DNA of 47,489 nt from a phage: the NCBI GenBank assembly GCA_025699765.1, contig GCA_025699765.1_4134.1. The stretch is one strand, 5' to 3'. The stretch's first letter is position 1, and the number at the start of each line of letters is the position of its first letter. The notes under the pieces were generated by a model, which was given only the letters and a program-made list of their open reading frames with translations, searched no databases and was not told the DNA's origin. Made by a program: the position numbers and the translations under genes. Positions 3,518 through 46,462 of the stretch are shown in pieces.

Positions 3518-3748
3518 ATGAAAAAGTTAATCACCATTATTGCTGCTGCATTCATCCTGACTGGTTGCGCTCAGAATCTTAAAAATGGAGACTGCGTCAC
3601 TTACGCTTACGGATCTTGCATGATGCGATTCGTTGACGGTAAGAAGGTTCCGGCTGGCGAAATCGATATGCGATTCAAAGGTCTGTCATCCGACGACGAT
3701 CAGGGTAACTTCAGCGGTAAGGTATCAATCAAAACCAAAGAGTGGTAA
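3518..3748 (+). CDS. Small lipoprotein, possible Cor/Llp-like superinfection-exclusion protein
   Basis: N-terminal signal peptide with lipobox LTGC (MKKLITIIAAAFILTGCAQ); 76 aa; lies next to the tail-tip gene, as for cor in phi80/N15 and llp in T5. Function inferred from size and position only. Confidence 0.5.
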   Translation: MKKLITIIAAAFILTGCAQNLKNGDCVTYAYGSCMMRFVDGKKVPAGEIDMRFKGLSSDDDQGNFSGKVSIKTKEW

Positions 3749-3750
3749 TT

Positions 3751-4707
3751 ATGGGACAAGGAATATACATAAACCTAAATGACGGTCGTCCAGCAATGGA
3801 GATAACCTCGGGACTTCGCGCCCCGTCATGGTGCGGACCAATACAAGCGGACGGGGTTGATTCATCTGGATCGGTTTTTGATTTTGGTCTGCAAATGAGT
3901 CCAGGATCTACCGCTTTTTGCCTTCCATCTCAGGCTATCTACATAGACGACATGTATTATATCCCGGAGGTGTATTATTTAACCAGCTTTCAGAAGGTTA
4001 ATGATTCAACAGGGAGAATAACGGTAGGTAATTTTAACGGTCATCGTGGAAGGAGAATGAGATTTTATGGAAACTGTTACGAAATCCTCCCAGCTCAGGC
4101 TGGAAATCAGGGGATGCTTGTTAGCGATTCAACGAACTTCGCGGCGATACCGAATAACGCCAGGTTGATGAGCGCGGCATTTGTTGGAGGTATCCAGGTT
4201 AACGGTCAGGCTCAGTTGCCAGTCCAGGGTGTTCCTTTCGGTATGTGGGATAACCCAAATGTAACACTGGAATCTGACGGGAATACAATATGGTGCAGAG
4301 ACGCAAACTATAACGGTATTGATGACGTTGGCGCGAGCGTATACGTTCAACTCGTAATATTTAATAACACTCCACCACCTCCCGGTCCGGGAATCACTAT
4401 GAGCAACCCTGCTGGTCAGATCGTTTTCTCAAGCGTTCGACGTCCTTTTGTTCTCGGCGGGACTATGGCGATAAATGACGGGTGGCAGTGGTGTGGTGGA
4501 TTTTTCCCAATACTAAGAACAGGTACGATATGTAGAGTTACAGGTGGATATAATAACATTCGATACAAGGGCGTGTGTATGAGCGGCGGTAACGTGAGAA
4601 GCGCCCCCGGAACAAGAGTAGGTAACTATTCCACCCAAAGCGGAGCGCGATTCCCCTTCAATATAAACATTTCAATGCCAATTCCTTTCACTCCAAACAT
4701 GTATTAA
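3751..4707 (+). CDS. Hypothetical protein, 318 aa, co-transcribed with the lipoprotein
   Basis: Long ORF starting 3 nt after the lipoprotein stop, with a Pro-rich PPPPGPG segment and no signal peptide. No family recognised. Ends at a bidirectional terminator. Confidence 0.5.
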   Translation: MGQGIYINLNDGRPAMEITSGLRAPSWCGPIQADGVDSSGSVFDFGLQMSPGSTAFCLPSQAIYIDDMYYIPEVYYLTSFQKVNDSTGRITVGNFNGHRGRRMRFYGNCYEILPAQAGNQGMLVSDSTNFAAIPNNARLMSAAFVGGIQVNGQAQLPVQGVPFGMWDNPNVTLESDGNTIWCRDANYNGIDDVGASVYVQLVIFNNTPPPPGPGITMSNPAGQIVFSSVRRPFVLGGTMAINDGWQWCGGFFPILRTGTICRVTGGYNNIRYKGVCMSGGNVRSAPGTRVGNYSTQSGARFPFNINISMPIPFTPNMY

Positions 4708-4710
4708 AAA

Positions 4711-4733
4711 AAAGGGGCCAGTCGGCCCCTTTC
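4711..4733. terminator. Bidirectional hairpin terminator (ggggccagtcggcccc)
   Basis: GC stem flanked by an A-run and T-rich sequence, between the convergent 318-aa gene and the J-like gene. Confidence 0.5.
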
Positions 4734-4735
4734 TG

Positions 4736-7700
4736 TTACCAGACACCAACAACCACTCGGCCCCCGTTAGGTAGGTTAACCGTGATCCCGTTATTGTTTA
4801 TCTGAACCGTATTGTTTGTCCCGTTGAATGCAAACGATCCGTTGTCTGCATACAAAGCACCCCTTACGGTTGCGTTCATGAAGTAAGCTGCACCATTCTT
4901 GTTAATATGCCATCCTTGATTTCCATCCCAATTGTTAGACTGAATCGCGTTACCAATCATGGCGTTAGTAATAAATCCATCCTTGATAATCGCGCTATTT
5001 AGAATAACCTGGCCATTCTCAACAACGAATGGGTACTGAGTCTGACCATTCATCCCTGTCATGATTGCAAATCGTGATGCCTCAAACAAAATCTGCGCCT
5101 TAACTGCTGCGCCTGAACCAATCAGAGACATAGCCATGCCTGCACTGTATTCCTGCCCATTATACTTAAGGCCCATCTTGACGCCGTACATTGCACCAGT
5201 CGAATCCGCATTGCTCCACGAATCAAGTTTTTGAGAAAGTGCTGCCTCATTATTCCCAAGCCTCGCGCTTAACGACAAGTCAGCTTGCGTTCTCGCCTCA
5301 GTCTCGTTTGCTATAGCCTCTCTGATATCAGTCAAACTTGCCTGGATATCATCACCAATCTCTGCCTTGAGTTGGTCAATTTCACGCGATAGCGCTCCAG
5401 TCTCAGTCGCTATAACTTCACGCAATTCGCTATTGCTTGCGCTAATCTGATCGTCAAAACTTGCCTTCAACTGCTCGATCGCCGTCACTCGCGCCTGCGT
5501 CTCATCAGCAATAAGTTTCAGTGATTTCGTGTACTCAGCTTTTCGTTTTCCGTTCTCCTTCTTCATGTAGATCGCGTCTTTATCATTGGCGAGCGCGTTT
5601 TCTATTGCTGCCTCTGCGTTAGCTGCGTTCTGCGCCGCGTTGTCTGTTGCGTTATCAACAAGCCACTCGTAACCCGGCGAGTTTTCGATATCGACAGAAA
5701 TCTCTCCGATGATATCGTCAACGTTTGTTGATGCCATACCTCTGACAAAATCAGTCCACTGAGACACGTTACCGATCCTGTCAACCGTCCTTACCCGATA
5801 CCACACAATATTCCCTCCAGGCATCGGTGAGTGATAATACTCATGCTGCGGGTACGGAATCAAAGAAAGCAAACTTGCGTTATCCACTGTTCCATCCGGT
5901 GACTGTTGCAACTCTGTATAGGCCGTATCTCCAGAACCATCAGAGAACCCCCATTTTGTACGGATACCAAAAACAACATCATCCGTAGCTGTAAGGTTAA
6001 TAGGTCGTCCCGGCTCACCTTGTTTACCCGTCAGCGTCGCAGCTACGATATTTGACCATCCTGAAGTCGTACCGGAACCAGCGACAGATCGAACGCGAAC
6101 CTGATAGTTGCCAGCGTAAATCCCTTCAACATAAACCTCCTTGTTTGCCGTCTGCGGGACGTTCTGCCAGTTGCCATTATCCTTTCGCCACTGGACGTCA
6201 TAGAAAACTGCGTACGGAACTTTATCCCAGCTAACAATCATCGTTTCTACGCTCATCCCCTGGACGATTCGTGATTCTGAGGACACTTGCACGTTTTCCG
6301 GTCTAGGGATCTGATCTGGTTCAACGATGCTAGTCGGTCGGTCGTCGATATTAACTCCGTAATCAATCTCATCGTACTTGTTAGGATTGTACTCCACCGC
6401 CGTGATTTTGTAGGTAAATTCCTCATCATCATCGCCCTTATCGATTTTTGTCACGACGTACTGCTGTAACGCAATGTCGGTGCGGTCGATAGCGAATACC
6501 GTGTTAGGCTTCACAGGAAAGCCAAAGCCAATGTTAACCTCTATAGTCTTACCATCCGCACTAACACTTGAGATTGTGCGCTTCACTGGCTTGCCATCTG
6601 GCTTATTTACGATAATAAAGTCACCAGCGCGTGCATCCACACGGAACGGCAAGAAAATCTGACTACCGGATACTTCGAGCAAGCGCCCTGATAGGTTCAT
6701 CGTTAAGTTACTTGACCAGAAGTTATCAGCTATTGCCACAACATCTCCGATTGTCGGGATCATGCCCTCAAGTCCGGTAGCGAAGTTTACCGTAGTGCTG
6801 CGGAGGTTAGTTTTCAGAATCCATCTCCCGCGTCGGTTAGCTTCACTTCGACGTGTGCACCCGATCGCTGTAATGCTCGTTACGTTATTCCCGAACCGTA
6901 GAGTTGCCTCTCTGTCGAATACTGGCTCAACGTCCTGCTGATACATGTTTTGTTCATCATCAAACATAACGTTGCACGTCGTGTACATACTTTTCTCGCT
7001 TGCGAACGTGTAGGAGAAGTCACCATTAACCACGTTGTCGTTAGTGAAGATGTACGCAGGTTCACGCGGCCTGTCGATGATTACCGAAATGCTTTCACCA
7101 TTCCAAAAGCTCATTCCACGGAAGATTGAGCAAATATCTCGAATCACCTTGTACGCATCAGTCTGTGACTGAATTATCACGTCGCAAAGGTAGCGAGGCT
7201 CAGTACCGCCTTTACCGTCAGGAACCATCTGATCACAATATTGCGCCGCCTCATATAGCGCCCATTTATCGACAGATATTCCAAGCTCTTTCTGATCAAG
7301 CCCATAACGCTGATTAATCATCAGGTCATAAAGTACCCAGGCAGGATTATTAGTCCACGCCTTCTTAAAAGTTCCATCCCAATTTCCGTTATAAGTTCGT
7401 GATTCTGGATCATAGTTTGACGGAACGTTTACAATCTTCCAGCGCTTACGAATTGAGATCGTAGGTAACTGGTTTGGGAACATCTTCGAATCGAACTCGA
7501 CGAAAAGAAGACCAGTCAGAGGGTAACGGAATTTGGCATCAATCACCTCGGCATAGCTCTTTACCTGAATCGCGTCAACAACGTTCGAGTCGTTAGAGTC
7601 TGGAGTTTTACGAACGACTCTGAATATCACCTGATTGTTGAAGTTAGGTAGGTTTACACGCCTGCTTCGATCGTAACCTGACATTGTTTTGCCTTCGATT

Positions 7701-8185
7701 ACATCGGTGAGCACCGTCTCAAACGAGCCGCCATCAACAGCTTGTTGCACCTCATACTCAACTCTTACGCCGTTTTTATCACCGTTGCTTTCAATTCGTA
7801 CTCCGCGAGGCATAAACATTTTGATACGGATTGCAGAAAGCGTTTTGTTGGTTACTGAGATCGTGTATGGGTTATCTGTAGTAACCTCACGGCTTACAGT
7901 TACCTCACTAGAGCTATCTTCCATCCCCTTGATATATTCCTGAGTCTGCGTCCCAGGCCTAAACTCTGCCTTTACTCCCTCGAAGTTAAATGAGCCATCC
8001 TCGTTTTGCACCGGGACTGAGTTAAACATCAACTGCTTTAGGCTGAATGTTTCGTCAATCTCGCCATCAGACACAGCTAACAGGATCTTGATTTTGTTGA
8101 TTGAGATTAGATTATCTTCCATCTCAACTGGCTTATGCGGCTTAGGTGAACCGCCTTTCGATCCGCTTATCACTTTTTGAATCAT
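4736..8185 (-). CDS. Tail tip / host-specificity protein (lambda J-like central fibre)
   Basis: 1149 aa; N-terminal two-thirds carries the conserved J-family core (NPAWVLYDLMINQRYGLDQ...), then a fibronectin-III-like region and a divergent C-terminal domain. Position after I/K/L/M matches lambda-like tail modules. Confidence 0.9.
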   Translation of the reverse strand: MIQKVISGSKGGSPKPHKPVEMEDNLISINKIKILLAVSDGEIDETFSLKQLMFNSVPVQNEDGSFNFEGVKAEFRPGTQTQEYIKGMEDSSSEVTVSREVTTDNPYTISVTNKTLSAIRIKMFMPRGVRIESNGDKNGVRVEYEVQQAVDGGSFETVLTDVIEGKTMSGYDRSRRVNLPNFNNQVIFRVVRKTPDSNDSNVVDAIQVKSYAEVIDAKFRYPLTGLLFVEFDSKMFPNQLPTISIRKRWKIVNVPSNYDPESRTYNGNWDGTFKKAWTNNPAWVLYDLMINQRYGLDQKELGISVDKWALYEAAQYCDQMVPDGKGGTEPRYLCDVIIQSQTDAYKVIRDICSIFRGMSFWNGESISVIIDRPREPAYIFTNDNVVNGDFSYTFASEKSMYTTCNVMFDDEQNMYQQDVEPVFDREATLRFGNNVTSITAIGCTRRSEANRRGRWILKTNLRSTTVNFATGLEGMIPTIGDVVAIADNFWSSNLTMNLSGRLLEVSGSQIFLPFRVDARAGDFIIVNKPDGKPVKRTISSVSADGKTIEVNIGFGFPVKPNTVFAIDRTDIALQQYVVTKIDKGDDDEEFTYKITAVEYNPNKYDEIDYGVNIDDRPTSIVEPDQIPRPENVQVSSESRIVQGMSVETMIVSWDKVPYAVFYDVQWRKDNGNWQNVPQTANKEVYVEGIYAGNYQVRVRSVAGSGTTSGWSNIVAATLTGKQGEPGRPINLTATDDVVFGIRTKWGFSDGSGDTAYTELQQSPDGTVDNASLLSLIPYPQHEYYHSPMPGGNIVWYRVRTVDRIGNVSQWTDFVRGMASTNVDDIIGEISVDIENSPGYEWLVDNATDNAAQNAANAEAAIENALANDKDAIYMKKENGKRKAEYTKSLKLIADETQARVTAIEQLKASFDDQISASNSELREVIATETGALSREIDQLKAEIGDDIQASLTDIREAIANETEARTQADLSLSARLGNNEAALSQKLDSWSNADSTGAMYGVKMGLKYNGQEYSAGMAMSLIGSGAAVKAQILFEASRFAIMTGMNGQTQYPFVVENGQVILNSAIIKDGFITNAMIGNAIQSNNWDGNQGWHINKNGAAYFMNATVRGALYADNGSFAFNGTNNTVQINNNGITVNLPNGGRVVVGVW

Positions 8186-8232
8186 GATGTTTACCTTTTT
8201 GTGCTATTTATCGGTGAACCCATTATACAGGC

Positions 8233-8258
8233 GAAAAAAAACCCGCGCAAGGCGGGTT
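8233..8258 (-). terminator. Rho-independent terminator (cccgccttgcgcggg + T8 on minus strand)
   Basis: Hairpin plus U-run after gene I. The same 22-nt sequence recurs at 10879-10900. Confidence 0.5.
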
Positions 8259-8262
8259 AATT

Positions 8263-8862
8263 TTAACTCATATCCTCGGCATAAGAACCTGCTGAGAAAG
8301 TTGCGCCACCTCCGGCGCGATATCCATACGGGACCGGGAGAGGGTATCCCGCCGCCGTCGTGTTGACAGCACCGCCGAACGCGTACGAAGGTTTATTCTT
8401 GCTTGATTGAACTTCAAAGTTTGCTCCACCCGGCTGCGGTGAAATCATTTGCATCACGCCGCCCAGCACCATAGCGCCGCCCATCATAAACAGAGACGAG
8501 GACATTGTGCCCATTAAAGCCAGAGATGCGCCGCCAGTATAGAATGCTGCAACCATTATTGCCGCGCCCAATACAACCTGAAATAGACCGCCTGACTTAG
8601 AGCCAGTTGGGATCGGGACGATTCTTATCTCTTTAGCGCATTTGAATTTTTCCTCTTCGTGGTGGCCTATGTTGATGCCATCCACAAATATTGCAAACTT
8701 GCTACGAGATCCTACCTCGCTTTGCATGTATTCTTTAAATCCGTCTACCTGACTGGATAGCGCCCGGATAGCTTCCGGGTAAGAGTCAACAGCGAATCTG
8801 TGAAAGACTCCGAAGCGTCTGCCAAGTGAACCGGATAGTTTGATTACTTTTACATCATTCAT
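8263..8862 (-). CDS. Tail assembly protein I-like
   Basis: N-terminal ubiquitin-like region and Gly-rich hydrophobic C-terminus, as in lambda gpI; sits between the K-like and J-like genes. Confidence 0.7.
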   Translation of the reverse strand: MNDVKVIKLSGSLGRRFGVFHRFAVDSYPEAIRALSSQVDGFKEYMQSEVGSRSKFAIFVDGINIGHHEEEKFKCAKEIRIVPIPTGSKSGGLFQVVLGAAIMVAAFYTGGASLALMGTMSSSLFMMGGAMVLGGVMQMISPQPGGANFEVQSSKNKPSYAFGGAVNTTAAGYPLPVPYGYRAGGGATFSAGSYAEDMS

Positions 8863-9593
8863 AATTTAAGATCCTTATGGCGAACAATTAAAACTGTGTG
8901 ATCCTGATACCAGCCGGAATAAATATCACGACGTGATAGCTTTCCGAATGCGTGATGCAAGATCTGATTATCACCCAGGTAAATCCCTGCGTGATTCCAT
9001 ACCGGAACATTTTGCCCTATCTGCATGATTACCATATCACCGAATGACGGATTATTCTGATCTGGAATCTCAACGAATCCATCTTGCTTGTAATAATCCT
9101 GATAGAGATTAATTCCATATTCCGGTTTCCACCATTCAAAATTCAACCTTCGATCGCGCAATTCTACGCCGTGCTCTTTGTGCCAAGCCATAACAAGACC
9201 GTAACAGTCAAATGAGCCTAACGACCACGGACGACCAATCAGGGGTAATTTCTCAGGCTTCACAAATCGCATATCTCCTTCCGGTACGCTAACAATAATC
9301 CAGGTCACCTCCATCTCATTACACATGCACGTATCGTGAGCGCTCGGTAGAGTTGTAGCCCCGTCTCCGGTGTGGCTGTGGACGATTGCGATCGTGGTTG
9401 AGTCTGCGTCGTCCTCAATGCATGCGTATTGCACTGCGTCCATCATGAAGTGATTTTCAGGATCGCGATGCACGTTATCAACGCGATGGTATTTTTGCAC
9501 GCGGCCCTTTTGGGTGACTACCCCGCAGCATTCGCGGGGGTATTCTTCTTGTGCATGAGTCATGATTTCAAGTTTAATTTTTGCGCTAATCAT
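8859..9593 (-). CDS. Tail assembly protein K-like (MPN/JAMM plus NlpC/P60 domains)
   Basis: JAMM-like motif HSHTGDGATTLPSAHD, then an NlpC/P60-like Cys/His region (CYGLV...H); gpK position. Confidence 0.8.
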   Translation of the reverse strand: MISAKIKLEIMTHAQEEYPRECCGVVTQKGRVQKYHRVDNVHRDPENHFMMDAVQYACIEDDADSTTIAIVHSHTGDGATTLPSAHDTCMCNEMEVTWIIVSVPEGDMRFVKPEKLPLIGRPWSLGSFDCYGLVMAWHKEHGVELRDRRLNFEWWKPEYGINLYQDYYKQDGFVEIPDQNNPSFGDMVIMQIGQNVPVWNHAGIYLGDNQILHHAFGKLSRRDIYSGWYQDHTVLIVRHKDLKL

Positions 9594-10057
9594 TTTCCGT
9601 GCCTCCAGGTAAAGCCATTTTTCATGTTAAATTCTTCCCTAGCCTTTACAGCCTCATCAAGTGAGTCATAGTAGCCTATATGAGTGTTTCCAGATGATAT
9701 CCTCCACTTTCCATTCCTGTATAAATTAACACCATTAAATCCAGAAGAATTTTTTGAGTTTTTCTTCTGGTTTTTTGCGTTAATGATAGCGTCAGCAAGT
9801 CTTAGGTTTTCTATTCTATCATCTCCAGCAATTCCATTTATATGATCTATAACCTTTCCTCCTGGTATAGATCCATTAAACATGGTCCAAATAATCCTGT
9901 GTCTGTAAAATCTTTCTCCATTTATTTTTACAATGACGTAGCCATCATTCCTTTTAGTTCCAGCCGATAAGCCGAGTAACCACGGCTTTCTCTTTGGCGC
10001 TAACTTGTAAAAAATCTCTCCGTCTCTATAAGAAAATAACTCAATGTAGTTAATCAT
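9590..10057 (-). CDS. HNH homing endonuclease with AP2-like DNA-binding domain
   Basis: HNH core (IDHINGIAGDDRIENLRLADAIINAKNQ) followed by an AP2-type segment (SGFNGVNLYRNGKWRISSG...GYYDSLDEAVKAREE). Inserted between the L-like and K-like tail genes; start refined to MINYIEL with a GAGG site. Confidence 0.8.
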   Translation of the reverse strand: MINYIELFSYRDGEIFYKLAPKRKPWLLGLSAGTKRNDGYVIVKINGERFYRHRIIWTMFNGSIPGGKVIDHINGIAGDDRIENLRLADAIINAKNQKKNSKNSSGFNGVNLYRNGKWRISSGNTHIGYYDSLDEAVKAREEFNMKNGFTWRHGK

Positions 10058-10836
10058 TGATTTTTCCTCTGTAGTGAAGCGACAGCGCAACCGCCAAAAT
10101 CCAGTTCATTGTTTGCTCCGAATCTCAGGCGGCAGGCCGTTACCGTACCTGGGCAGAAATCCAGAGAAGGATCATCTACCGGATTATTGTCTTTGTCAAA
10201 ATAACCGTTTTGCCCGTTGTATCCGCAGCCTTTCCCGGTTTTATACCATCCTCTTTGTGCAAAATAGCAAACGCTTTGCGTTAGTCGAGATGGTATCATG
10301 ATGCCATCCATATCATACGGAGACGTGAGATCGAAACGAGCGACACTCTTATCGACATAGCTCGGGCGTTCGATATAGTATACCAGTTTACGGTAAGCTC
10401 CATCAGCGATTGAGCCGTCAGGTTGAATTAAGTCCTTTTGAGTGATCCAGATTGTCACCTTCGCCTGCATCAATCCGTTATATGCACGAATCATTGCCGA
10501 CACTCTGCTATCAATATTTGCCACCGTTAATTGTGGTTTTGTAGCCTTGCCTGAACTGTCGAACGAGATCCCTGATATACCAAAAGGCCTCGCGCCGTAT
10601 TGCTCGCCACGGAAGGTGATTTCTTTCGGCGGCAGCGTTCCGGTTTGCTGGGCCTGCATGATTTCTTCTGGAGTGTACTGGATATTCTCGCCGTGAAATC
10701 TGTACACCTGAGCACCGAACTTACTACCATCAACTTCAATAAGGGTGATTATCTCGCCCGGATACAGTGATTGTAGGCAGTTGTGAAACAGGCTTCTCCC
10801 GCTTTCTTCATCATAAAGTTTTTTGTTTTCGCTCAT
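10054..10836 (-). CDS. Minor tail protein L-like
   Basis: gpL-like sequence with C-terminal Cys cluster (CPGTVTACRLRFG...GGCAVASL), consistent with the Fe-S site of lambda gpL. Start refined to MSENKKLY with AAGAGG site; the track ORF starts 57 nt upstream. Confidence 0.8.
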   Translation of the reverse strand: MSENKKLYDEESGRSLFHNCLQSLYPGEIITLIEVDGSKFGAQVYRFHGENIQYTPEEIMQAQQTGTLPPKEITFRGEQYGARPFGISGISFDSSGKATKPQLTVANIDSRVSAMIRAYNGLMQAKVTIWITQKDLIQPDGSIADGAYRKLVYYIERPSYVDKSVARFDLTSPYDMDGIMIPSRLTQSVCYFAQRGWYKTGKGCGYNGQNGYFDKDNNPVDDPSLDFCPGTVTACRLRFGANNELDFGGCAVASLQRKNQ

Positions 10837-10878
10837 TGATTTTTCCTCTTGTTTACCTGCAACCATTCTACAGCTACA

Positions 10879-10900
10879 AAAAAACCCGCGCAAGGCGGGC
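10879..10900 (-). terminator. Rho-independent terminator, same sequence as at 8233-8258
   Basis: aaaaaaacccgcgcaaggcggg on the plus strand reads as hairpin plus U-run on the minus strand after gene M. Confidence 0.5.
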
Positions 10901-10914
10901 TTTGTTATGTGGCG

Positions 10915-11268
10915 CTATTCCATAGATGTAAACTGCTCAATAAACGTTACGTTAATCTCCATCACGTCGCGTGATACTGGCTTCGCCCCCAGGCTGTTAG
11001 GCTTGACAACCCATACCCCGATCTTCCCGTCCGGCGGCGTCCATGCGAACGGATTAATGCGGTGAGAATCGCAGAAGTCGTAAACAGCCATGAAATCTTC
11101 CCCGGCATAGACAACTGAATACTCGCGTCGAGTGGTGTTAAATCCAGACGATGCAAGCTGCATGTAGCCATTACCAAACTGGATGGAGCGGTCGTTATTG
11201 GTAGTGGTAAGGGAGCCACCGCCCCCTTGAACCTGCGTACACCAACCGAAAGTGTCAAGTGTCGCCAT
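10915..11268 (-). CDS. Minor tail protein M-like
   Basis: 117 aa directly downstream of the tape measure gene and upstream of L, the gpM position; composition matches small tail-tip proteins. Confidence 0.7.
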   Translation of the reverse strand: MATLDTFGWCTQVQGGGGSLTTTNNDRSIQFGNGYMQLASSGFNTTRREYSVVYAGEDFMAVYDFCDSHRINPFAWTPPDGKIGVWVVKPNSLGAKPVSRDVMEINVTFIEQFTSME

Positions 11269-11270
11269 TA

Positions 11271-14144
11271 TTAACCTCCTGTTTTTTCCTGAATGTAATT
11301 ATAAACCTCGCCGCCCTGAGAACAAGACTCACGAATCATTTTTTTGAACATCATTTCTACACCCTGAGAAATGCCTCTCGGATCTGAACCGTTGTCAACT
11401 TTAACCTCCATACCCCTAACGTCAACGACCGTCCCACCTGCTGATTGGTTTACTGCCTTCGGTGCTGCTTTAGATGCGTTAAATCCAGATGTTGCCACAC
11501 TACCAGCTGCGGCAGCAAGAGAGGTAACGGCAGCGCCAGATGATAAAGACCTAAAACCGGAGGCGGCAGGCGTAGGAGTTGCCTGTGATGCCGCAGAAGC
11601 ACCAGACGACGCCACTCCAGCAAAGCTCCACGTCTTACCTCCCATCATGCCTGAGATCGTATTGAAGATTACCATCTGAGCAATCATCTTAATAATCATG
11701 CTAATGATGTTTTTCGCAAAGTCCTCAAAGTTTGCCTTACCTGTAGTCAGGAATTGAGTCATCATATCACTCATTCCGTTAAGTGAACTTGACGCGATAT
11801 CATATACGTTACCATACATATCCATTGCAGAATCGCCGTAATCTGCAAATGCGCTTTCAGCACCTGCCAACCAGTCAGCACGCTTGGCATCTTCCGCAGC
11901 ATAGTAATCATTTTGTGCTTTGATCATGTTCTGGAGTTTTTCATCTCCTTCGCTGCCACCTGCATTAATATAATCAGTGGTGATCTTAGCCAACTCAGCT
12001 TGCCGTTCCATTTCTCGGGTGCTCATCCCGCGAGACGCGTTTAGCTGCTCTGTAGCTGCCGTCAAATCATTAACAAATTTCAGTGATTTATCGGTAAGAG
12101 CGTTCAACTGCTGCTGCTTAACAATCTGATCGCCAATCTCAGCCTTCTGTTTCGCAAGCTCTAAAACTTTCTCCTGATTTGCAAGTAGTGCTTTTTCTTC
12201 CGCAGATAACTGACGCTTAGAACTAGCTTCTCTAAGAACAGCAATTGTAGCCTCAGTTGTAAACAACGCCTTTCTCTGTGCTGATAGCTTTTGACCGATC
12301 TCCTTGTGCTCCTGCAATACCTTAAGTTGAGCCTTGAGTGAAATTAATTCCTTGTCGAATTGCTCTGTCGGTGAACGTACAATTTTCGACTGCTTATTTC
12401 GCTCTCGGTTTCGCTTCTCGATCTCTTCAGCTTCTTTCCTTATTGCTTCCTTAGTTTCCTCACTGTACTGCTTTTCAAGAGTGCGACGCTGCTTCATCGC
12501 TTCAACGTATCCCATCTCGCCTTTTTCTACACGAGCGTTAATGGCGTCAAGCTCGGATGCCAACTGGTCGTAGTTGTCGCGAGAACTTTTTACGATGTTC
12601 TCCTGTTCCTTCAGCACATCAGCACCAAAATCACTCATGCCAGGCAGAGATTGCGTGGCCTTGATTGCAGAGGCAATAAAGTTTGAGATGTACTCATCAC
12701 CCTTAGCAAGAATCATTTTTACCTGAATTACCGTCCCCTGAACCACGTCAATAATCAGGTTTAATGCCCCGAGAGTATGATCCCCAACCCACCCCCACGC
12801 ATCAGAGGCCCACTGCTTAATATCGTTCCACATTTTTTCAAGAGGTGTGGCATTGTCTGCGATCGACTTCATTCGCTTCTCCATAACTTCTGCGAATAAT
12901 TTCGTGGCTTCAGACACCGCCTCAGTCTCACCCTTAGTGCGGCTTAGAGTGTCGATATATGTCAGTTGTCCTTTCTCCAGGAAGTTATATTGTTCGTTTA
13001 ACTTCTCCAGACCTTTAACCGGATCGCTTGCGATTTTGTCGAACTCAGCAATGATTTGGCTTGCTGATTTTCCAGTTGCTGCCGACCACTCAGCCGTCGC
13101 CTTAGTGATGTTCTTGATCTGCTCGCGGGTGTACTTACCAGAACTCGCCAACTCCGTTACAATATCACGAACACTTCCAACGGTTGAGTTGCTTGTCTGT
13201 GCGATCTTTTTGGCAACAGAATCAAGGTCATCAGCCGTAACGCCTGCATAACCGCCAGTCTCAATGAGAGCGTTTTGCATATCAGTGATTGACTTGTAAG
13301 AGTCATAACCAGCTTTCGCAAGAAGACCTAAAGAGCCGACAAGAACACCAATACCTGCTGTGACCGGATTAATATAACTGAGCAATACCTTAAACGTGTT
13401 GCCGATCCCGCCGAAAGAATCCTTAATCTGCCCTCCCTGCTGGATAGCAACCATCCATACAGGCATACCAGAAGCAAGAGACGTTACGACGTCTGTGATC
13501 TGCGCAGGAAGCATTCGCATTGCCTGCCTATATTGCCCTGCGCTAATGCCTGCGGCATTCATTGCCCGACCCTGATCTTTCAGTTTTGCGATTAGTGGCG
13601 CTGCTTCTTTCGATAAGCCAAGCTCAGCCGCTTTCAGTTCCATCAATTCAGCGTGAGTCTTGCCAATCGCGTTAACTTGACTATTCAGGGCATCCATGAA
13701 TGCCTTGCTTCGTGCTGCCGCCTGTTCTTTTGCTTTCGCTTCCTGCAATGCCGCCCGACCCTCTTCCGTCAGCATCGCACGACTGCGAGCAAGTTTTGCG
13801 TTTTGCATATCAAGCATTTCACCTAAACGGAAAAACGTGTCATCTGGAATAACGCCTTGCTGCCAGAGTTTATCAAGCTGCTGGGAAGCAACTTTTAACC
13901 TCTCCATTTTTGCAACTGTAGGATCGATTGCTTTCTCTACCGCTTCGTACTCTTTTCTCTGTCGCTTGAGTTGTTCTGCGTGTTCTTTAGCCTTCTGCTT
14001 CGCTACTTCCGCCTCATTGATTAAAGATCCCATAGAGTCAGCGGCCTGGTCGTTGGCCCTTGAAAACTCTTTCAGTGACTTGACGGCGCGCTGTACTGTT
14101 GACACGTCAACGTCAAGAGACAAACCTGCTACTTTATCAACCAT
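11271..14144 (-). CDS. Tail tape measure protein
   Basis: About 957 aa, strongly alpha-helical/coiled-coil (Ala/Lys/Glu/Gln-rich) with a Gly-rich hydrophobic C-terminal segment; follows the G/G-T chaperone pair. Start refined to MVDKVAGL; the track starts at an upstream TTG. Confidence 0.85.
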
Positions 14145-14162
14145 ATAGCCCCCTATATACGA

Positions 14163-14182
14163 AAAAACCGCCAAACGGCGGC
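14163..14182 (-). terminator. Hairpin plus U-run (attenuator) between G-T and tape measure gene
   Basis: ccgccaaacggcgg stem-loop with an A6 run on the plus strand, directly after the T-frame stop. Confidence 0.4.
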
Positions 14183-23157: not shown

Positions 23158-24729
23158 TTATTGCCGCTTAACCATCCCGGCAAGTCGCTTCATTCTCTCG
23201 ATAGGATCGTCAATAGTCAGCAATTCAATGTTCGCCGCATCCATGAAGTTATCAACAATGTCATCATGCGGATGTGTGTCATCATATGTGAAAGCGCTAT
23301 GCTCTGCGATGATTTCAGCAAGCATAGGGTGCTCCTCTGGAAGAACTACACGCCCGGCCTTAATAACTGGCTGAGCATCCATCGCTCGGGTAACTTTATC
23401 TTTGTTACGTTGCAATGGTGTAATTGAGATCGGGGTCTTTTTCCTTAAGTTCTGAATCAAGCCCGTTCCGCTCGCTTTATCTTCCACGTAGATTTTGCGA
23501 AGCACGCCCATTGATTTATTGTGCCTCCATGCCTGATTCACAAAGGCGGTAAATTGTTTCTCCATATCAGGCGCTTCCCACTTTCCGCGAATACCGTCGA
23601 TAAAGTAAACCTTATCGTTTTTCTTACCCCACAAACAAAAGACTGTGTAGTCGTTTAGCTCACCCGTCTTCTGAGCGGTATCGGCTGTGATAAAACGGTA
23701 ATCATATTTACCAGGATCTGGCTCGTCAGCGTCAAGGCTGCTGCCGTAATAAGTCCACCACTCCGAGTTAAACACGGAGCCACCAAGCGCGATCGGCTTC
23801 TGCTGATACTGAGAGTCAAAGGTGTACTGGTCCGCTTCGCGCAAAGCTAACAGGTCGTGTACACTTTCCTTGCTGGGCCAGAATGAGTAATGCTTAACTC
23901 CATCCAACTCTACATATTCAGACGACAAAACGTCGCGCTCAAAGTAAGGCTGTAACCAGTCAGGGAGCGTCTTTCCGTATTCTTCAGTAACCAGTGCAGG
24001 AATTGAGATCTGATCAAACTCAATACCCATGCCTCCATTCATCATAAACCAGGTCGAATCCTGCGCGTGTAGTCGCTGCTGGATTGCGATAATTGGTGTC
24101 TCGTTATGCATACGACGGGATCGAATGGTGTTTTTCAATAGCATGTGCGTACGCTCACGCTTAACCTTTGAGAACATATCATCAGGCTTGTCGATGTCGT
24201 CGAGCATTACCATACCTGAGAATCCCGGTGTCATGTAGCCACCACGCGAACCAGTAATACGACCGCCAGCCGCTGCGGAGATTAGCTCAAACCAAACCTT
24301 TCCGTCACTATTCAGAACCTGAATCTCTTCGTCTTTAGATGTGCCGAACTTGCAAGGCCATAACTCCTGGAATTCGTTACTGCTGATAATCTCACGAACG
24401 CGCTTACTGTTACGCTTCACCAGGCTGTCGGCAAACGACACGTTAAGGTTACGAATCTTTTTACACTTAAGCATTGCGTACACCGGGAGGTGGATTGAGA
24501 ATATCTCAGTTTTTGATGATCCTGGCGTTACGTTAAAGATGGTGTTACCGCGACGACCCGCAACAATCTCTTCAGCCTCATGACACAAGTAAATATGATG
24601 CCAGTTCATTGAGTATTTTTGCGCCTGCATAATCTGGAACCATGCCCTAATCATTCCAGAAAAGCTTGCCTCAGATATTTTCTTTATAGCCAGCTTCTCA
24701 AGATCGTTTAACTCTTCCCATTGCAACAT
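23158..24729 (-). CDS. Terminase large subunit
   Basis: 523 aa with an N-terminal ATPase region and a C-terminal nuclease-like region containing conserved acidic residues; flanked by the small subunit and portal genes. Confidence 0.9.
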   Translation of the reverse strand: MLQWEELNDLEKLAIKKISEASFSGMIRAWFQIMQAQKYSMNWHHIYLCHEAEEIVAGRRGNTIFNVTPGSSKTEIFSIHLPVYAMLKCKKIRNLNVSFADSLVKRNSKRVREIISSNEFQELWPCKFGTSKDEEIQVLNSDGKVWFELISAAAGGRITGSRGGYMTPGFSGMVMLDDIDKPDDMFSKVKRERTHMLLKNTIRSRRMHNETPIIAIQQRLHAQDSTWFMMNGGMGIEFDQISIPALVTEEYGKTLPDWLQPYFERDVLSSEYVELDGVKHYSFWPSKESVHDLLALREADQYTFDSQYQQKPIALGGSVFNSEWWTYYGSSLDADEPDPGKYDYRFITADTAQKTGELNDYTVFCLWGKKNDKVYFIDGIRGKWEAPDMEKQFTAFVNQAWRHNKSMGVLRKIYVEDKASGTGLIQNLRKKTPISITPLQRNKDKVTRAMDAQPVIKAGRVVLPEEHPMLAEIIAEHSAFTYDDTHPHDDIVDNFMDAANIELLTIDDPIERMKRLAGMVKRQ

Positions 24730-25273
24730 TTTTCAACTCCCCTTCATTAAATGACCTTTCACACAAGTTTTCATGAATTTCTAATTTCGCTTTCGCGTAT
24801 GCTGCTCTACATTCTTCCGGAGTGTCAAAATAACCAATGAATGTTACCTTGCCTTTCCTCTTAATCCTGCAATGCCATCGACCAACCCTTTTCTCAAAAT
24901 ATCCACCAGCAATATCATTGCAATCTCTATTCTGCTGATTCCTCATCGCGTCAGTTTCTTGCAGGTTTTTTACTGCATTGTTTTGTCTGTCACCATCAAT
25001 GTGATCTATTTTTTCAGGCCATACCCCATAATGAAGGAACCACACCACGCGATGAGCAAAAAACCTCCTACCCCTACTACCGCGCTGACCTCTAAAATAA
25101 CCGTCTTTAGTAACCTCCCTGAATGCGACGGAGTTTTCCTTATTCCTATGAAACATGTTCTTAAACCTCAATGATGTAGGTGATGATTCGTCGTAATATA
25201 CGTGCTCCAACAACCACGCCTCATCATCTGCACTTACTTCTCTTGCTAATCCTGTGTTCATAGTCAAACCCAT
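24698..25273 (-). CDS. HNH endonuclease, terminase-associated
   Basis: HNH core (KIDHIDGDRQNNAVKNLQ) plus a Cys/His-containing region; lies between the small and large terminase genes and overlaps the large-subunit start. Confidence 0.7.
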   Translation of the reverse strand: MGLTMNTGLAREVSADDEAWLLEHVYYDESSPTSLRFKNMFHRNKENSVAFREVTKDGYFRGQRGSRGRRFFAHRVVWFLHYGVWPEKIDHIDGDRQNNAVKNLQETDAMRNQQNRDCNDIAGGYFEKRVGRWHCRIKRKGKVTFIGYFDTPEECRAAYAKAKLEIHENLCERSFNEGELKNVAMGRVKRS

Positions 25274-26604: not shown

Positions 26605-26633
26605 ATAGTACAATTGTTAATTATGTCTGTCAA
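26605..26633 (-). promoter_or_regulatory. Sigma-70-like promoter (minus strand)
   Basis: On the minus strand TTGACA, 17-nt spacer, TACTAT. The leader downstream contains the inverted repeat GTGAGA-tgat-TCTCAC. Confidence 0.35.
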
Positions 26634-27115
26634 CTGATTCCGTGATTTTTATGAAACCCATTAACAATTCTAAACCTCATGGCGGCATCTCCAGCGTCTT
26701 TAGCGTTATGAAATCTTCCTACAGTATGAGTGACTCCATTAATCTTAACTTTAGCTATGAATTTACCACTCACAGTATCTAGGTGAACTCCGCAGAATCC
26801 TGTTTTATTAGATTTCTTTAACTTGACGTTTTTCATATTTTTAGAATGAGAAACTATCCTTAAATTATCAATCCTGTTATCTGCTTTGTCGTGATTTATG
26901 TGATCTACCTCCATCCCTTCCGGTATAGATCCAAAATGAATAATCCATGCCACACGGTGAGCCAACCATTGCTCATTACCTAAACTTAACTTTATGTACC
27001 CGTTCTTAAATTTTGTGGTGTTCTCCTTTCTGTTCCACCTGTTTAATATAACTCCAGTTTTTGGATTGTATATGTACAATGAATTAAAATATGATTGACT
27101 AGTCATTTGCCTCAA
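26630..27115 (-). CDS. HNH homing endonuclease with AP2-like domain
   Basis: HNH core (EVDHINHDKADNRIDNLRIVSHSKN) followed by an AP2-type segment (TGFCGVHLDTVSGKFIAKVKINGVTHTVGRFHNAKDAGDAA). Confidence 0.8.
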   Translation of the reverse strand: MRQMTSQSYFNSLYIYNPKTGVILNRWNRKENTTKFKNGYIKLSLGNEQWLAHRVAWIIHFGSIPEGMEVDHINHDKADNRIDNLRIVSHSKNMKNVKLKKSNKTGFCGVHLDTVSGKFIAKVKINGVTHTVGRFHNAKDAGDAAMRFRIVNGFHKNHGIS

Positions 27116-28727: not shown

Positions 28728-28835
28728 GTTAGCATCTCCCTAAAAATAATTTTGCCATATTGATGATAGTGTGATTGATGATTAACAGGATGATAACCGT
28801 CAATACCGGATGTGCTGAAATAAATTCGTACAGGT

Positions 28836-29369
28836 TCATTCATCTACCCCGTGAGATTTTAAATGACTGTGAACGTTATCGCCATAGTCAACTACAGCGT
28901 AAGTGGTTATCCCAAGCGATCTGAATTTTTTTATTATATTCACTGAGTCATCCCAAGCCGCAAGAATGTTTTCAATGCCGATCGCGCGAACCGCCTCCTC
29001 TTTCATCACCGTATCTTTCCGGTTATCGGTGCGCGGACGCATAATCAGGTAATCATATCGCGCACCGTGATGCTTAAGCCATAACTCAGATGCGTAACGC
29101 ACCTCATCACTTCGCCCGGTTAAAATTATTACATGATATCCAGCGGCAAACATGGAGTTCATCACATCGATCGTGCTTTGGATAGGGTTGTCAAATATTG
29201 CAGCGCGGTTAAACTCGGACCAGCTTTCGGTTAAGTGCAAATCCTTTGTAGGTAGCAGGTGAAGTCGACCAGATCCATCGCTAAGTGTTCCGTCAAAGTC
29301 AAAGATTGCTACGCGGCGCGGGCCGAGAAACAGGTTGATTGTCTGGCCCCAAATTGTGATTTTATCCAT
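28836..29369 (-). CDS. HAD-family phosphatase resembling the 3'-phosphatase domain of T4 polynucleotide kinase
   Basis: HAD motif I AIFDFDGTL; further matches to the T4 Pnk phosphatase domain (ILTGRSDE vs VVSGRE; DNRKDTVMKEE vs DTRKDDVVKEE), recalled from memory. Confidence 0.65.
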   Translation of the reverse strand: MDKITIWGQTINLFLGPRRVAIFDFDGTLSDGSGRLHLLPTKDLHLTESWSEFNRAAIFDNPIQSTIDVMNSMFAAGYHVIILTGRSDEVRYASELWLKHHGARYDYLIMRPRTDNRKDTVMKEEAVRAIGIENILAAWDDSVNIIKKFRSLGITTYAVVDYGDNVHSHLKSHGVDE

Positions 29370-30317: not shown

Positions 30318-30576
30318 GAATTTTACCTCTTTATTATGCAGTTGGTTGATTTCTTCGATTGCGTCTTTAAATTTAACACCATCTACGATTCGATGAAAGA
30401 TATATTTTGAACTACCGCCATACGGAAGAAAAATTTCCTGATATTCGCGACGACGGACAATGTTCACATTTCAGCCGTTCTCATCAGCAATGATAAAACT
30501 ATCATCACTCACTCTAGCGCCTTCATACACCTCCCCCACTTGAAACCAGATCCGCTACTTGATACACATTCAAATT

Positions 30577-30864
30577 TCATGGTCTAACCTTCCTGTAAGG
30601 TTTGATTGATAACATCACGTACTGCGTGAAGTCGCATTCTTGCTCGTCATACCCGCGATTGATGTATGGCGTCACATCAGTAACATCAGATACCCTGGCA
30701 TGCACTTCCCACCCGGTAAACTCATCCCGATCGAACTCGCATAGCTCCAGGATATCGCCAGGCTGGAAGTTGCGGTCATTAATGCGGAACTCTGCCGTTT
30801 TTGTTCCGTTCATTACTCCGATGAAATGTACAGGAGCGATTTTTAACTTATGAGTTTTTCTCAT
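30577..30864 (-). CDS. DUF3850 / ASCH-like (PUA-fold) domain protein
   Basis: HKLKIAPVHFIGVMNGTKTAEFRINDRNFQPGDILEL matches the DUF3850 pattern H-x-LKI-x-P-x-YF...K-x-FE-x-R-x-NDR-x-FQ-x-GD. Confidence 0.55.
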   Translation of the reverse strand: MRKTHKLKIAPVHFIGVMNGTKTAEFRINDRNFQPGDILELCEFDRDEFTGWEVHARVSDVTDVTPYINRGYDEQECDFTQYVMLSIKPYRKVRP

Positions 30865-30971
30865 AGCTGATTCCTCTGATTGGTTGCTTTGCTTCAATAA
30901 GGCCACTATATCAAATGGCCTTGCGGAATGTTTAGCAATTTGTGCTTAGTAATTTTATGGCTTTATATTAA

Positions 30972-31271
30972 TCAATCAGGTTCGCGAGGCTTGTAGTTAA
31001 AACGATGCCAGCTTGTTCTTAGTTCTATTTGTTCGTAACTATCCCTACGCTCAGCGAAGCCAAGCTCCACAGCTAACGCGTGCAATTCATGTTTCCGCTT
31101 TATCTGTGCCATTCCAAGCCAGTCTGCGTCTGCATTACGCCGTTCACACTGCTTCGGGGTCATATCGTTGAAATCTTTTTCGCTTAGCTTCTGCTGCCGT
31201 TTTGTGTCGGCTTTCATGTCGCGCAGATGTTTAATCATCTTGTCAATCTTACTGATAGTATATTCTGTCAT
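30972..31271 (-). CDS. Hypothetical protein, 99 aa
   Basis: ORF in the early operon downstream of a palindrome-bearing region. Confidence 0.5.
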   Translation of the reverse strand: MTEYTISKIDKMIKHLRDMKADTKRQQKLSEKDFNDMTPKQCERRNADADWLGMAQIKRKHELHALAVELGFAERRDSYEQIELRTSWHRFNYKPREPD

Positions 31272-31309
31272 GTTAACCTCTGCGCCCGGCTTTCGCTGGG
31301 CTTTGAATA

Positions 31310-31522
31310 TTACATTGGCGGTTGTACTCGGAAGAATTCAAAATCTTTCAGTGTGGCAAGTTTCAACTTATCTTTACTGGTGATCACTTTTGGTTCTTCC
31401 GACCAGCTGGCTCCGAGTTGCGGCTTGCTTGCCAGAACACCTAATACCTCAGGTTGTTCGTCGAGCACGTAGCCAAATGTGTGGCCGTTCATTACGTAGT
31501 AAGTTGCGTTGTTGAATTTCAT
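31310..31522 (-). CDS. Hypothetical protein, 70 aa
   Basis: Start refined to MKFNNATYY with GAGG site; the track ORF extends upstream through the 57-bp repeat. Confidence 0.5.
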   Translation of the reverse strand: MKFNNATYYVMNGHTFGYVLDEQPEVLGVLASKPQLGASWSEEPKVITSKDKLKLATLKDFEFFRVQPPM

Positions 31523-31548
31523 TTTGTTTTCCTCGGTATGTTTCGTTG

Positions 31549-31605
31549 TCGATGGAGTAACTATATCAAGATGCCACGATCCGGTTTTAACAAAAAGTGC
31601 TATTC
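31549..31605. repeat. 57-bp exact repeat, copy 2, promoter-like element
   Basis: Identical to 29538-29594; lies between the 31600 and 31310 genes. Confidence 0.7.
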
Positions 31606-31920
31606 TACGGTAAACTCGACGTCGGTGATTTTCCACTTCTCAGTCTTGGGAGTGGTGAGGTTCTCAATTTCAAGAATGTTACCCTCAACCTTGAGGAATT
31701 TTAGATCTTGCCCACTTATTTCACGCAACTTACCTACGAGCATTCCAGCGTTTAGTCTTACGACGCTCCCATCAAATCCTTTTGTGAAGTATCTTGGGCC
31801 AACGGTATCAAGGTTTATCTTGATTGACCTCTTACCAATCAGTGCGTCAGCTATCTTCTTGATGTTTTCCTTCTGCTTACCAATTGCCTTACGCTCTTCT
31901 TCTGTTAACGGTTTAAACAT
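31600..31920 (-). CDS. Hypothetical protein, 106 aa
   Basis: ORF in the early leftward operon. Confidence 0.5.
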   Translation of the reverse strand: MFKPLTEEERKAIGKQKENIKKIADALIGKRSIKINLDTVGPRYFTKGFDGSVVRLNAGMLVGKLREISGQDLKFLKVEGNILEIENLTTPKTEKWKITDVEFTVE

Positions 31921-31932
31921 AGTAATTCCTCC

Positions 31933-32448
31933 TCACAGTCCACACTTTTCGATATGCGCCTTCATCTGGCGAACCAGGTCGCGCACGGTGCTTACAGTCA
32001 CGTCGCCTTTCTCAAGGTCATCAATATCAGGAACAAACGAATCCAGACAATCGGCTATGCTAACTTTTTTCCGACTACGGCGCTTCTTCACTGGAACCTC
32101 TTCGTCAGTAACGGTAACGGTTATCATTGTGATTGCCGACTCATTACGGCCCACCTTCACCTTTGCCACCTTGCCGTACTTGCAGAAGTGCCGGGTAATA
32201 ATCGGAGTGATGAAAGCAGACTTAAATCGCTTCTCCACCTCCTTCCCGTTCGAGGTCAACCATGTTGATGCGCCTCGCTCAATCTCTTCCTCTGTAATAT
32301 CCCGATCTCGGAAGTAAAATTTTACCGCCTCTCTCGCCATATCATCAGCCAAGAAAGAGAACTCGGTCATGCCTTTGTCGCGATACATTTTGTCACAGGT
32401 TAGGCGAATCATGTCGGTGATTTTTAATTCCTGATTGGTATTGCTCAT
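31933..32448 (-). CDS. Hypothetical protein, 171 aa (first gene of leftward early operon)
   Basis: First ORF leftward of the AT-rich control region; basic patch KKRRSRKK. Confidence 0.55.
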   Translation of the reverse strand: MSNTNQELKITDMIRLTCDKMYRDKGMTEFSFLADDMAREAVKFYFRDRDITEEEIERGASTWLTSNGKEVEKRFKSAFITPIITRHFCKYGKVAKVKVGRNESAITMITVTVTDEEVPVKKRRSRKKVSIADCLDSFVPDIDDLEKGDVTVSTVRDLVRQMKAHIEKCGL

Positions 32449-33134
32449 AATATAACCTCTTTGTCTATTCGTGTGTAAATGGCGTCATAACGTGTCAACA
32501 ATTGCCATTGTGACGGCGCAATACAGATATGTCAACGCCTGCGAGCCAATTTTAAGCCGTGTAACATTTGTCTAGCTGTCTAGAGTCACTATAGAAATAT
32601 ATAGCTCCCAAAAAAAGTACTGTATATATAAACATGCAGATAGAAATATGCCAACAGTACGCTAGACAATGTAAGACAACTATACACAACTATTACAATA
32701 TAATTATCTATATATATAAATAAAAAAAACACTATATATATTATATAGATACATATATCTATATGTATATTTAGAGGCGTCACAGTGTGTAATTTTGTCA
32801 CAATGGCGATTCTAGACAAATATTACAGTCGTGACAAGTTAAAGTGTAATCGATAGCACTTTTTGCTAAAAATGGGGATTACTACCAGGCGAACCGGGTA
32901 ACACTAGATCCTCCCTCTCACAATCATTGCATTCTCAGCAACAAATCAACCAACTGTTGCACACCATGCAATAATCACGTTTCATCATTCGAGATCAATC
33001 GGGATCGCAATTATTCCAGATATTCCAGCATTGATGGAATAATGAGCAATTATTGGAATAGCATTTTTTGCTAACGACTTAGCTATGTTGGCAGGGTATG
33101 ATTCATCACATCAACCAGCCAGGAGAATAACAAG
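32449..33134. promoter_or_regulatory. AT-rich divergent control region with nested inverted repeats and two TAGCA-N5-TGCTA sites
   Basis: 686 bp non-coding. Inverted pair gccattgtgac (about 32507) / gtcacaatggc (about 32798); TGTCTAG twice (about 32568) and CTAGACA (about 32660, 32812); (TA)n-rich core 32690-32780; palindromes at about 32862 and 33053. Confidence 0.5.
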
Positions 33135-33515
33135 ATGACAGATTCAAAACTTCAGGCAGCAATTGACCGTGCAAATGAGAAAGGTTTCAAAGTTGTGATT
33201 TACAATCACCGGCCTGTCGGGATAATCCGCCCCCGCAACCGAGTTGTTATTACTCAGCGCGATACCGGGATCATCATTACCAATATTTTCACCATTAAAG
33301 AGCATCAAATCATGATTGATTATATCAATCGACACGTCGAATCGGTTGAGTTCGGAAAGCTGGACGGTGACGAGAAGGATGCTATCATTGAAAACCTTCT
33401 CGAAGAGGTGGGCCTCGCGTTTGAAGAGCGACCGGATAACGGAACGACTCGTTGGGATTGTGATAAGCTGGACGCAATAAACCGCATCCGTGAAATCCTG
33501 GAGGAAAAATTATGA
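33135..33515 (+). CDS. Hypothetical protein, 126 aa (first gene of rightward operon)
   Basis: ORF with AGGAGA site, directly after the control region. Confidence 0.55.
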   Translation: MTDSKLQAAIDRANEKGFKVVIYNHRPVGIIRPRNRVVITQRDTGIIITNIFTIKEHQIMIDYINRHVESVEFGKLDGDEKDAIIENLLEEVGLAFEERPDNGTTRWDCDKLDAINRIREILEEKL

Positions 33516-33543
33516 TCGTATATATCTATACTGGAGGAATTGC

Positions 33544-34819: not shown

Positions 34820-35236
34820 ATGAAATCCATCAAACTTAAATGTACTTCCGCAGACAAAATCACAGGATTTGAAGTTAACAACCTTTACAAAGGTCGAGAG
34901 CGCTACGATGGAACTCGTGAGGTTAAGTTAAAGTGCGGTAAGTATTTAAAACTTGATAAGCATGATGAATTACAGATTCACGGATCTGATGAAATCTTCT
35001 TCGCAAAATTCACTGAACTTAAAACCAAAACACTCAAGTGTACCGGGCTTGACCATCGCAACCCAATGAAAAAATCATTCAAAGTTGGCAAGCGTTACCA
35101 GGTTGAAAGCGGTCGCGCGCTCGGTATTGTTGCTGGTTACATCTTTGATGAGGATGGTTGCCGCTGGAATTTATTTCGTGCGGATGTCGGATTCATCATT
35201 GCAGACGGCACAACCTTTGAGGCCAAATACTTATAA
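34820..35236 (+). CDS. Hypothetical protein, 138 aa
   Basis: Start refined to MKSIKLK with AGGAG site. Confidence 0.5.
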   Translation: MKSIKLKCTSADKITGFEVNNLYKGRERYDGTREVKLKCGKYLKLDKHDELQIHGSDEIFFAKFTELKTKTLKCTGLDHRNPMKKSFKVGKRYQVESGRALGIVAGYIFDEDGCRWNLFRADVGFIIADGTTFEAKYL

Positions 35237-35309
35237 CCAATAGCACTTTTTGCAAAACGCGTGTACCATTGGCGGTGTATCATTCACACCGTCAACTAAG
35301 GAGTTTATT

Positions 35310-38815: not shown

Positions 38816-38880
38816 GATATGTAGCCTCTTTGTTTTTGATGTGGTTACTATACCCGAATCCCTTCGGGCGTTTTTATCAA

Positions 38881-46362: not shown

Positions 46363-46363
46363 C

Positions 46364-46386
46364 CGCCTTCTGGCGGTTTTTTATTG
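46364..46386 (+). terminator. Rho-independent terminator (accgcc-ttct-ggcggt + T6)
   Basis: Hairpin plus U-run immediately after the primase stop. Confidence 0.55.
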
Positions 46387-46462
46387 TCCATTGCAAGTCA
46401 GATAGCACAATGATAAAATCATTGTTTAGCAATTCGTGCTATTTACTTAAGGAGTTTATACT

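Follow-up and report, generated by a model that had tools for sequence, protein, structure and literature searches.

The tail genes on the minus strand of the window studied here (the whole 47,489-nt stretch of DNA that was analysed) are ordered M, L, HNH, K, I, J, raising the question of how an endonuclease gene (HNH1) came to lie between the two tail tip genes L and K, and whether it is mobile. The window derives from a T1-like siphophage of the genus Tunavirus; a megablast search with positions 8800-11300 matched 66 phage records at 90-95 % identity, almost all of them Escherichia/Shigella Tunavirus. HNH1 very probably represents a free-standing HNH-AP2 homing endonuclease gene of a lineage specific for the L-K junction in T1-like (Drexlerviridae) phages. 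Coordinates of the relevant features are compiled in Table 1.

Table 1. Features of the L-K junction, its surroundings and the further HNH genes (window positions, except for the T1 genes in the last line)
Feature	Position	Strand	Remarks
Tail gene J	4736-8185	-	
Tail gene I	8263-8862	-	
Tail tip gene K, downstream host gene	8859-9593	-	Pfam Prok-JAB and NLPC_P60
HNH1, free-standing HNH-AP2 endonuclease gene	9590-10057	-	155 aa
Tail tip gene L, upstream host gene	10054-10836	-	Pfam Phage_tail_L, E 2.4e-41
Tail gene M	10915-11268	-	
Tape measure	11271-14174	-	
7-nt repeat ATGATTA, right copy (K start codons)	9587-9593	-	alignment with T1 and Shfl1; start contexts
7-nt repeat ATGATTA, left copy (HNH1 start codons)	10051-10057	-	alignment with T1 and Shfl1
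GGAGG in HNH1 3' end, replacement Shine-Dalgarno for K	9602-9606	-	sequence; 8 nt upstream of K ATG
17-mer copy 1, native K start context (SD AGAGGA, spacer, ATGA), now that of HNH1	10054-10070	-	exact match
17-mer copy 2, translation-initiation context of L	10833-10849	-	exact match
Candidate co-conversion tract, near-identical to Lg3	9586-10269	.	4 differences in 684 nt
HNH4, paralogous HNH_3/AP2 gene between TerS and TerL	24698-25273	-	absent from T1; in Lg3 and S2_02
HNH2, paralogous HNH_3 gene	26630-27115	-	absent from T1 and Lg3
HNH3, paralogous HNH_3/AP2 gene between helicase and resolvase	42304-42804	-	takes over the ATGATTACAGA start of the resolvase
HNH genes of T1 (L020)	5465-5959, 46085-46624, 42028-42510		empty window sites 28731-28899, 35234-35239, 38854-38896

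An earlier note, made from the sequence alone, had described an HNH gene joined to L and K by ATGA overlaps on both sides. This is borne out, with the ATGA at 10054-10057 being common to the L stop and the HNH1 start, and that at 9590-9593 to the HNH1 stop and the K start. The alignment with insert-free T1-like genomes proposed in that note defines the cassette, by comparison with T1 and Shfl1, as a clean 468-bp indel on the ATG of K; the host genes are undisrupted. Since HNH1 and K both start with ATG ATT A, the insertion point is ambiguous inside the 7-nt ATGATTA. The cassette sits exactly on the K start codon, and HNH1 has therefore inherited the native Shine-Dalgarno sequence and ATG of K, both of which sit within the final codons of L. 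The 3' end of the cassette (CTGGAGGCACGGAAAATGATT) in turn supplies a GGAGG ahead of the K ATG that overlaps the HNH1 stop. Translational coupling, likewise considered in the earlier note, fits this arrangement, with HNH1 on the original start signals of K and K restarted from within the HNH1 3' end. An equal build is found in carrier L022, the HNH protein of which is 72 % identical to HNH1: the junction reads ...CCAATGATTAACGGC in the insert-free Nouzillyvirus ESCO41 and ...CCAATGATTAATTAC at the HNH start of L022, where K starts with GAGGCACGGAAAATGATAAACGG. A GAGG equivalent to the GGAGG of the cassette is retained in the homologues of L022 and L036. Consensus scans for promoters and terminators inside the cassette yielded no convincing candidate, and the late tail transcript is therefore the most likely source of HNH1 mRNA.

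HNH1 matches Pfam HNH_3 (PF13392) above the curated threshold (61.3 bits, cut-off 24.8; E 6.6e-17) as well as phrog_99 (E 8.5e-46). Among 64 homologues, D71, H72 and N84 are invariant and N93 and N96 nearly so; all are present in HNH1, i.e., the catalytic D-H general base and the Asn of the beta-beta-alpha metal site are kept. The predicted structure combines a nuclease core resembling I-HmuI with a C-terminal AP2 fold (three-stranded sheet packed on a helix), the presumed DNA-binding domain. A Pfam sequence search at E<=0.01 returned no AP2 match in HNH1; the domain carries a 4-residue deletion in the sheet and is shorter than in most homologues, and judging from the predicted model it appears recognisable by fold only, having diverged too far for the Pfam model. 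The protein is maintained by purifying selection, as follows from the low dN/dS between HNH1 and its homologue in L023 (0.15-0.16; 0.10 for a sister homologue pair), whereas three of the four differences between the window and Lg3 are non-synonymous, a sample too small for interpretation.

An N-terminal HNH nuclease combined with a C-terminal AP2 DNA-binding domain, encoded by free-standing phage genes adjoining essential genes, is shared with the HNH-AP2 homing endonuclease family (Magnani, Sjolander and Hake 2004, PMC520932, as cited in PMC10448857), the genes of which are found at recombination boundaries beside essential genes (PMC10448857). I-HmuI of phage SPO1 (PDB 1U3E) differs from HNH1 in being intron-encoded, in carrying a helix-turn-helix instead of the predicted AP2 domain at its C-terminus and in being a nickase, while HNH1 may either nick its target or introduce a double-strand break. 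The free-standing homing endonucleases of T4 (Seg proteins, MobE) are encoded by intergenic selfish genes like HNH1, which spread by cleaving insert-free relatives and co-convert flanking markers (PMC2790892, PMC2988022). However, the Seg proteins are GIY-YIG enzymes, and the T4 genes often possess their own promoters and direct cleavage distant from the insertion site, whereas HNH1 apparently relies on the transcript of the host operon and the ribosome-binding site of the downstream gene.

Mobility of HNH1 is indicated by its distribution. Only one of the 62 isolate genomes spanning the region (Lg3) contains the insert, annotated there as hypothetical protein. Presence of the gene at this position in all relatives had been named in the earlier note as the finding that would speak against homing; this is clearly not the case, as T1, Shfl1 and some 60 further Tunavirus isolates lack the gene. 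This presence/absence polymorphism at an otherwise colinear site, together with the 468-bp indel, supports the view of a sporadic, free-standing, homing-type HNH-AP2 gene in an otherwise uninterrupted M-L-K-I-J module. A search of IMG/VR revealed no close relative of the HNH1 protein (a single match, 37 % identical over a fragment), and an exact-pattern scan of the same resource retrieved 15 junction loci, 15 of 15 insert-free, which were picked by the K-side sequence itself and are thus uninformative on the conservation of the K-side 17-mer copy discussed below. The GC content of HNH1 (36.1 %) is below that of L (46.9 %), K (45.9 %) and the genome (45 %); the other three HNH genes range from 35 to 41 %.

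A further argument comes from the synonymous divergence among the three available carrier genomes (the window, Lg3 and L023, a metagenome contig). Compared pairwise, these genomes yield a dS of 0.011-0.067 for HNH1, compared to 0.37-0.42 for L and 0.34-0.68 for K, hence 5 to 60 times lower in the cassette than in the adjacent genes. Thus, the cassette entered already diverged backgrounds recently. In addition, the window and Lg3, which are 93.0 % identical over 38.3 kb, share a near-identical tract that extends from the first few nt of K through the whole of HNH1 and 212 nt into the 3' end of L. Its flanks are about 89-94 % identical; on the L side, identity breaks off sharply at 10270 and is 88.7 % in L past this point. 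Accordingly, the dS contrast marks an element younger than its flanks, and the Lg3 tract is of the kind that flanking co-conversion leaves. Genome-wide, the longest perfect run between the two phages (24706-25165) lies inside HNH4, and the fourth-longest (9983-10269) spans the HNH1 start. The segment encoding the N-terminus of J (7236-8257) is also almost identical to Lg3, including perfect runs at 7236-7660 (425 nt) and 7956-8257 (302 nt), and constitutes a recombination tract without an associated nuclease gene. Since these two long identical runs have no neighbouring HNH gene, a tract of high identity alone is no proof of homing; phage genomes are mosaic anyway. The contrast in synonymous depth is the stronger argument for mobility.

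The closest homologues of HNH1 in a search of 5.8 billion proteins are 97, 72, 68, 53, 50 and 49 % identical. All homologues at least 49 % identical (L023, L022, L036, L032, L024, L025) are encoded between homologues of L and K, and form a clade with 99 % bootstrap support. In contrast, those homologues at or below 48 % identity that were checked reside elsewhere, beside lysis genes, a PNK-type phosphatase or early genes. One may envisage that HNH1 is an old vertical resident of the Drexlerviridae L-K junction, mostly lost and no longer mobile. The monophyly of the junction clade and the occurrence of same-junction homologues in phages with L and K only 52-76 % identical to those of the window agree with such a history, as does the observation that across genera HNH identity drops along with L/K identity, which is what vertical co-inheritance combined with many losses would give. 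Nevertheless, this explanation is unlikely: simple vertical descent cannot yield the low dS of the Tunavirus cassette (0.01-0.07) next to the far deeper L and K, and the presence in a single isolate of 62, the sharp identity breakpoint 212 nt into L and the purifying selection acting on the protein likewise oppose it.

HNH_3 endonuclease genes have also been annotated between L and K in phages Rtp (gp40), DTL, ACG-M12, AHP42, Sf12, JeanPiccard and XT34; an endonuclease at the L-K junction of the T1-like tail module is therefore already on record, while within Tunavirus itself it is uncommon. These Rtp gp40-type proteins, however, share no more than 37-38 % identity with HNH1 and do not belong to its clade. 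Moreover, about 70 nt lie between L and the Rtp gene, which possesses a start context of its own and has 20 nt in common with K, in contrast to the ATGA overlaps at both ends of HNH1. The upstream region of Rtp gp40 (L038, 1089-1170; TATAATCTCTTAAAT...GGGGGTTAAAAT) is common to L032 (187-270) and L025 of the junction clade, as are the first ca. 17 residues of the protein (MNWHDYFRYEDGKLYW), the remainder of which is only about 38 % identical to HNH1. Such a patchwork points to chimeric nucleases that arose through recombination at the junction. In phage TR2 (L041, 1129-1338 and 1493), the interval between L and a K gene annotated as shortened comprises a hypothetical ORF of 69 aa as well as a ca. 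150-nt gap, and may represent the remnant of a decayed junction element. Several HNH_3 genes are also present in UNVERIFIED, Campylobacter-labelled records classed as Drexlerviridae, Tempevirinae (L031; MG065675, "Campylobacter phage A118"), the host label of which appears doubtful. Literature searches revealed no paper on the junction-specific HNH clade; they yielded genome announcements and studies of homing endonuclease genes in general.

As a homing endonuclease gene, HNH1 would be transcribed with the late tail operon. Its product would nick or cleave the conserved DNA at the L-K junction of an insert-free relative infecting the same cell, activity, target site and strand specificity all being inferred. 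Recombinational repair from the carrier genome would then copy the cassette together with short flanking stretches. Hardly any variation occurs among the 19 genomes compared in the ca. 45 nt preceding the junction and the ca. 25 nt following it, which makes this stretch a suitable homing target. Carriers are probably protected by the insertion itself, which would split the target, rather than by nearby substitutions. Synonymous substitutions near the junction that are shared by the window and Lg3 and were considered as immunity changes (10117 A, 9565 C, 9556 T and 9553 A) were rejected, since the third carrier, L023, possesses the insert-free variants; their absence from L023 makes site splitting the likelier cause of protection.

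The earlier note had also listed further HNH genes, HNH2 and HNH3 as members of the same family and HNH4 as a different type. Both former genes indeed encode nucleases matching HNH_3 and phrog_99; HNH4 is a nuclease as well, but not of another type, as HNH_3 and phrog_99 match all four proteins. The AP2 matches of HNH3 and HNH4 remain below the Pfam threshold (21.4 and 16.7 bits, respectively, vs. 33.3), and HNH2 likely starts at an ATG 9 nt inside the listed TTG start. The HNH4 insert is covered by Lg3 and S2_02 alone, and the gene is not a conserved terminase partner throughout the phage group, being missing from T1 and most Tunavirus; the HNH3 insert was detected in none of 217 matching phage records. 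T1 in turn possesses three HNH genes (orf63, orf15 and orf8, "T7 gp3.8-like") that resemble HNH1 in belonging to the same family (35-41 % identity), in being free-standing and in their variable occurrence in Tunavirus, but occupy three other sites. The window has no HNH gene at any of these, nor does T1 have one at any of the four HNH sites of the window. Thus, nuclease cargo has turned over completely between two genomes that are about 91 % identical.

These patterns bear on a domestication of HNH1 for a phage function (tail assembly, regulation of K, DNA packaging or defence against competitors), i.e., a role that is not purely selfish. HNH proteins adjoining terminases are known helpers in some cos phages, and the purifying selection on HNH1 as well as its precise embedding, with translational overlaps, in a late structural operon would suit such a role. 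Yet more than 95 % of the close relatives make tails without HNH1, the occupation of mutually empty sites by the three genes of T1 and the four of the window marks interchangeable selfish elements, and the exclusion of competitors during co-infection is simply what homing amounts to from the perspective of the phage, so that domestication appears highly unlikely.

The identity of 17 nt between the start contexts of HNH1 and L, pointed out in the earlier note, is exact. The sequence AGAGGAAAAATCAATGA occurs exactly twice in the window, both times on the minus strand. No further copies with up to 2 mismatches are present in the window (0.02 matches expected by chance), and a 3-mismatch search gave one weak extra match, not above chance, so that the 17-mer does not qualify as a start-site motif used throughout the genome. 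The copy at the L-K junction doubles as the last five codons and stop of L (QRKNQ*), and CAGAGGAAAAATCAATGATTAGTGC is the native junction in insert-free T1 and Shfl1, which likewise possess the L-start copy. Of 15 further insert-free Tunavirus loci with L-start sequence, 10 match the latter exactly, the others differing by 1-3 bases in the spacer between Shine-Dalgarno and ATG. Exact identity is thus the state of most Tunavirus genomes, and the repeat is older than the insertion. In more distant relatives the K-side context is kept because it is L coding sequence, whereas the L-side context differs (GGAGAAAATATCATG). That the repeat was made at HNH1 integration, as insertion footprint or duplicated homing site (the main reading of the earlier note), is hardly credible despite its exactness far beyond chance and the abutment of one copy on the insert, since insert-free genomes carry both copies at the same two places, the copies bracket gene L while the insert is bounded solely by ATGATTA, and the diverged carrier L022 combines a different L start context with the same junction design. 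With this misreading corrected, the 17-mer would here serve as a good ribosome-binding site.

The strongest remaining interest of HNH1 as a homing endonuclease gene lies in the junction-specific clade and the reproducible design of start-codon capture and replacement. The latter is found independently at the helicase-resolvase junction, where the overlap in T1 reads GGAATGATTACAGACAAAGG; HNH3 starts with that ATGATTACAGA (MITD), and the resolvase of the window (41898-42329) has its start rebuilt as ATGTCAGTAACTGATAAAGG (MSVTDKG vs. MITDKG), overlapping the HNH3 3' end. The targets of HNH3 and at the L-K junction both start with AATGATTA. A general integration rule may consist in the capture of a downstream ATGATTA start and the supply of a rebuilt start and Shine-Dalgarno at the 3' end of the cassette. 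L and K are located just upstream of the host-range gene J, and one may tentatively speculate, though the idea is more doubtful than not, that a long-lived, site-specific L-K HNH-AP2 lineage has followed the tail-tip module across Drexlerviridae genera as more than a passenger, repeatedly driving short L/K gene-conversion tracts and thereby helping to build the mosaic of tail alleles, possibly under such a start-capture rule. The locus would provide a clean natural case in which a homing endonuclease gene can be shown to be younger than both neighbouring essential genes, and the L-K junction, as the single conserved target of a nuclease clade, is a defined substrate on which an HNH-AP2 enzyme could be characterised. 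For phage engineering and therapy, it is relevant that such elements would shift flanking tail-gene sequence between co-infecting T1-like phages.

Some further observations concern the surroundings of the junction. A 42-nt repeat is present after gene I (8215-8256) and after gene M (10858-10899), the copies being 83 % identical. On the minus strand, both contain a rho-independent terminator hairpin (CCCGCCTTGCGCGGG and a T run), behind which lies TGTATAAT or TGTAGAAT, resembling an extended -10 element. Duplicate cassettes with a terminator and a promoter-like sequence thus flank the L-(HNH)-K-I block on either side. In ESCO41 (L040, 1-311), a gene annotated as "endonuclease VII" lies directly upstream of L and overlaps its start, indicating that other nuclease genes are also drawn to the tail-tip module. 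By blastn, two stretches of the window (3569-4931 and about 30330-33530) resemble T1 or Lg3 little or not at all and probably represent replaced accessory or receptor-binding modules; the former contains a plus-strand ORF of 321 aa (3742-4707) beside J.
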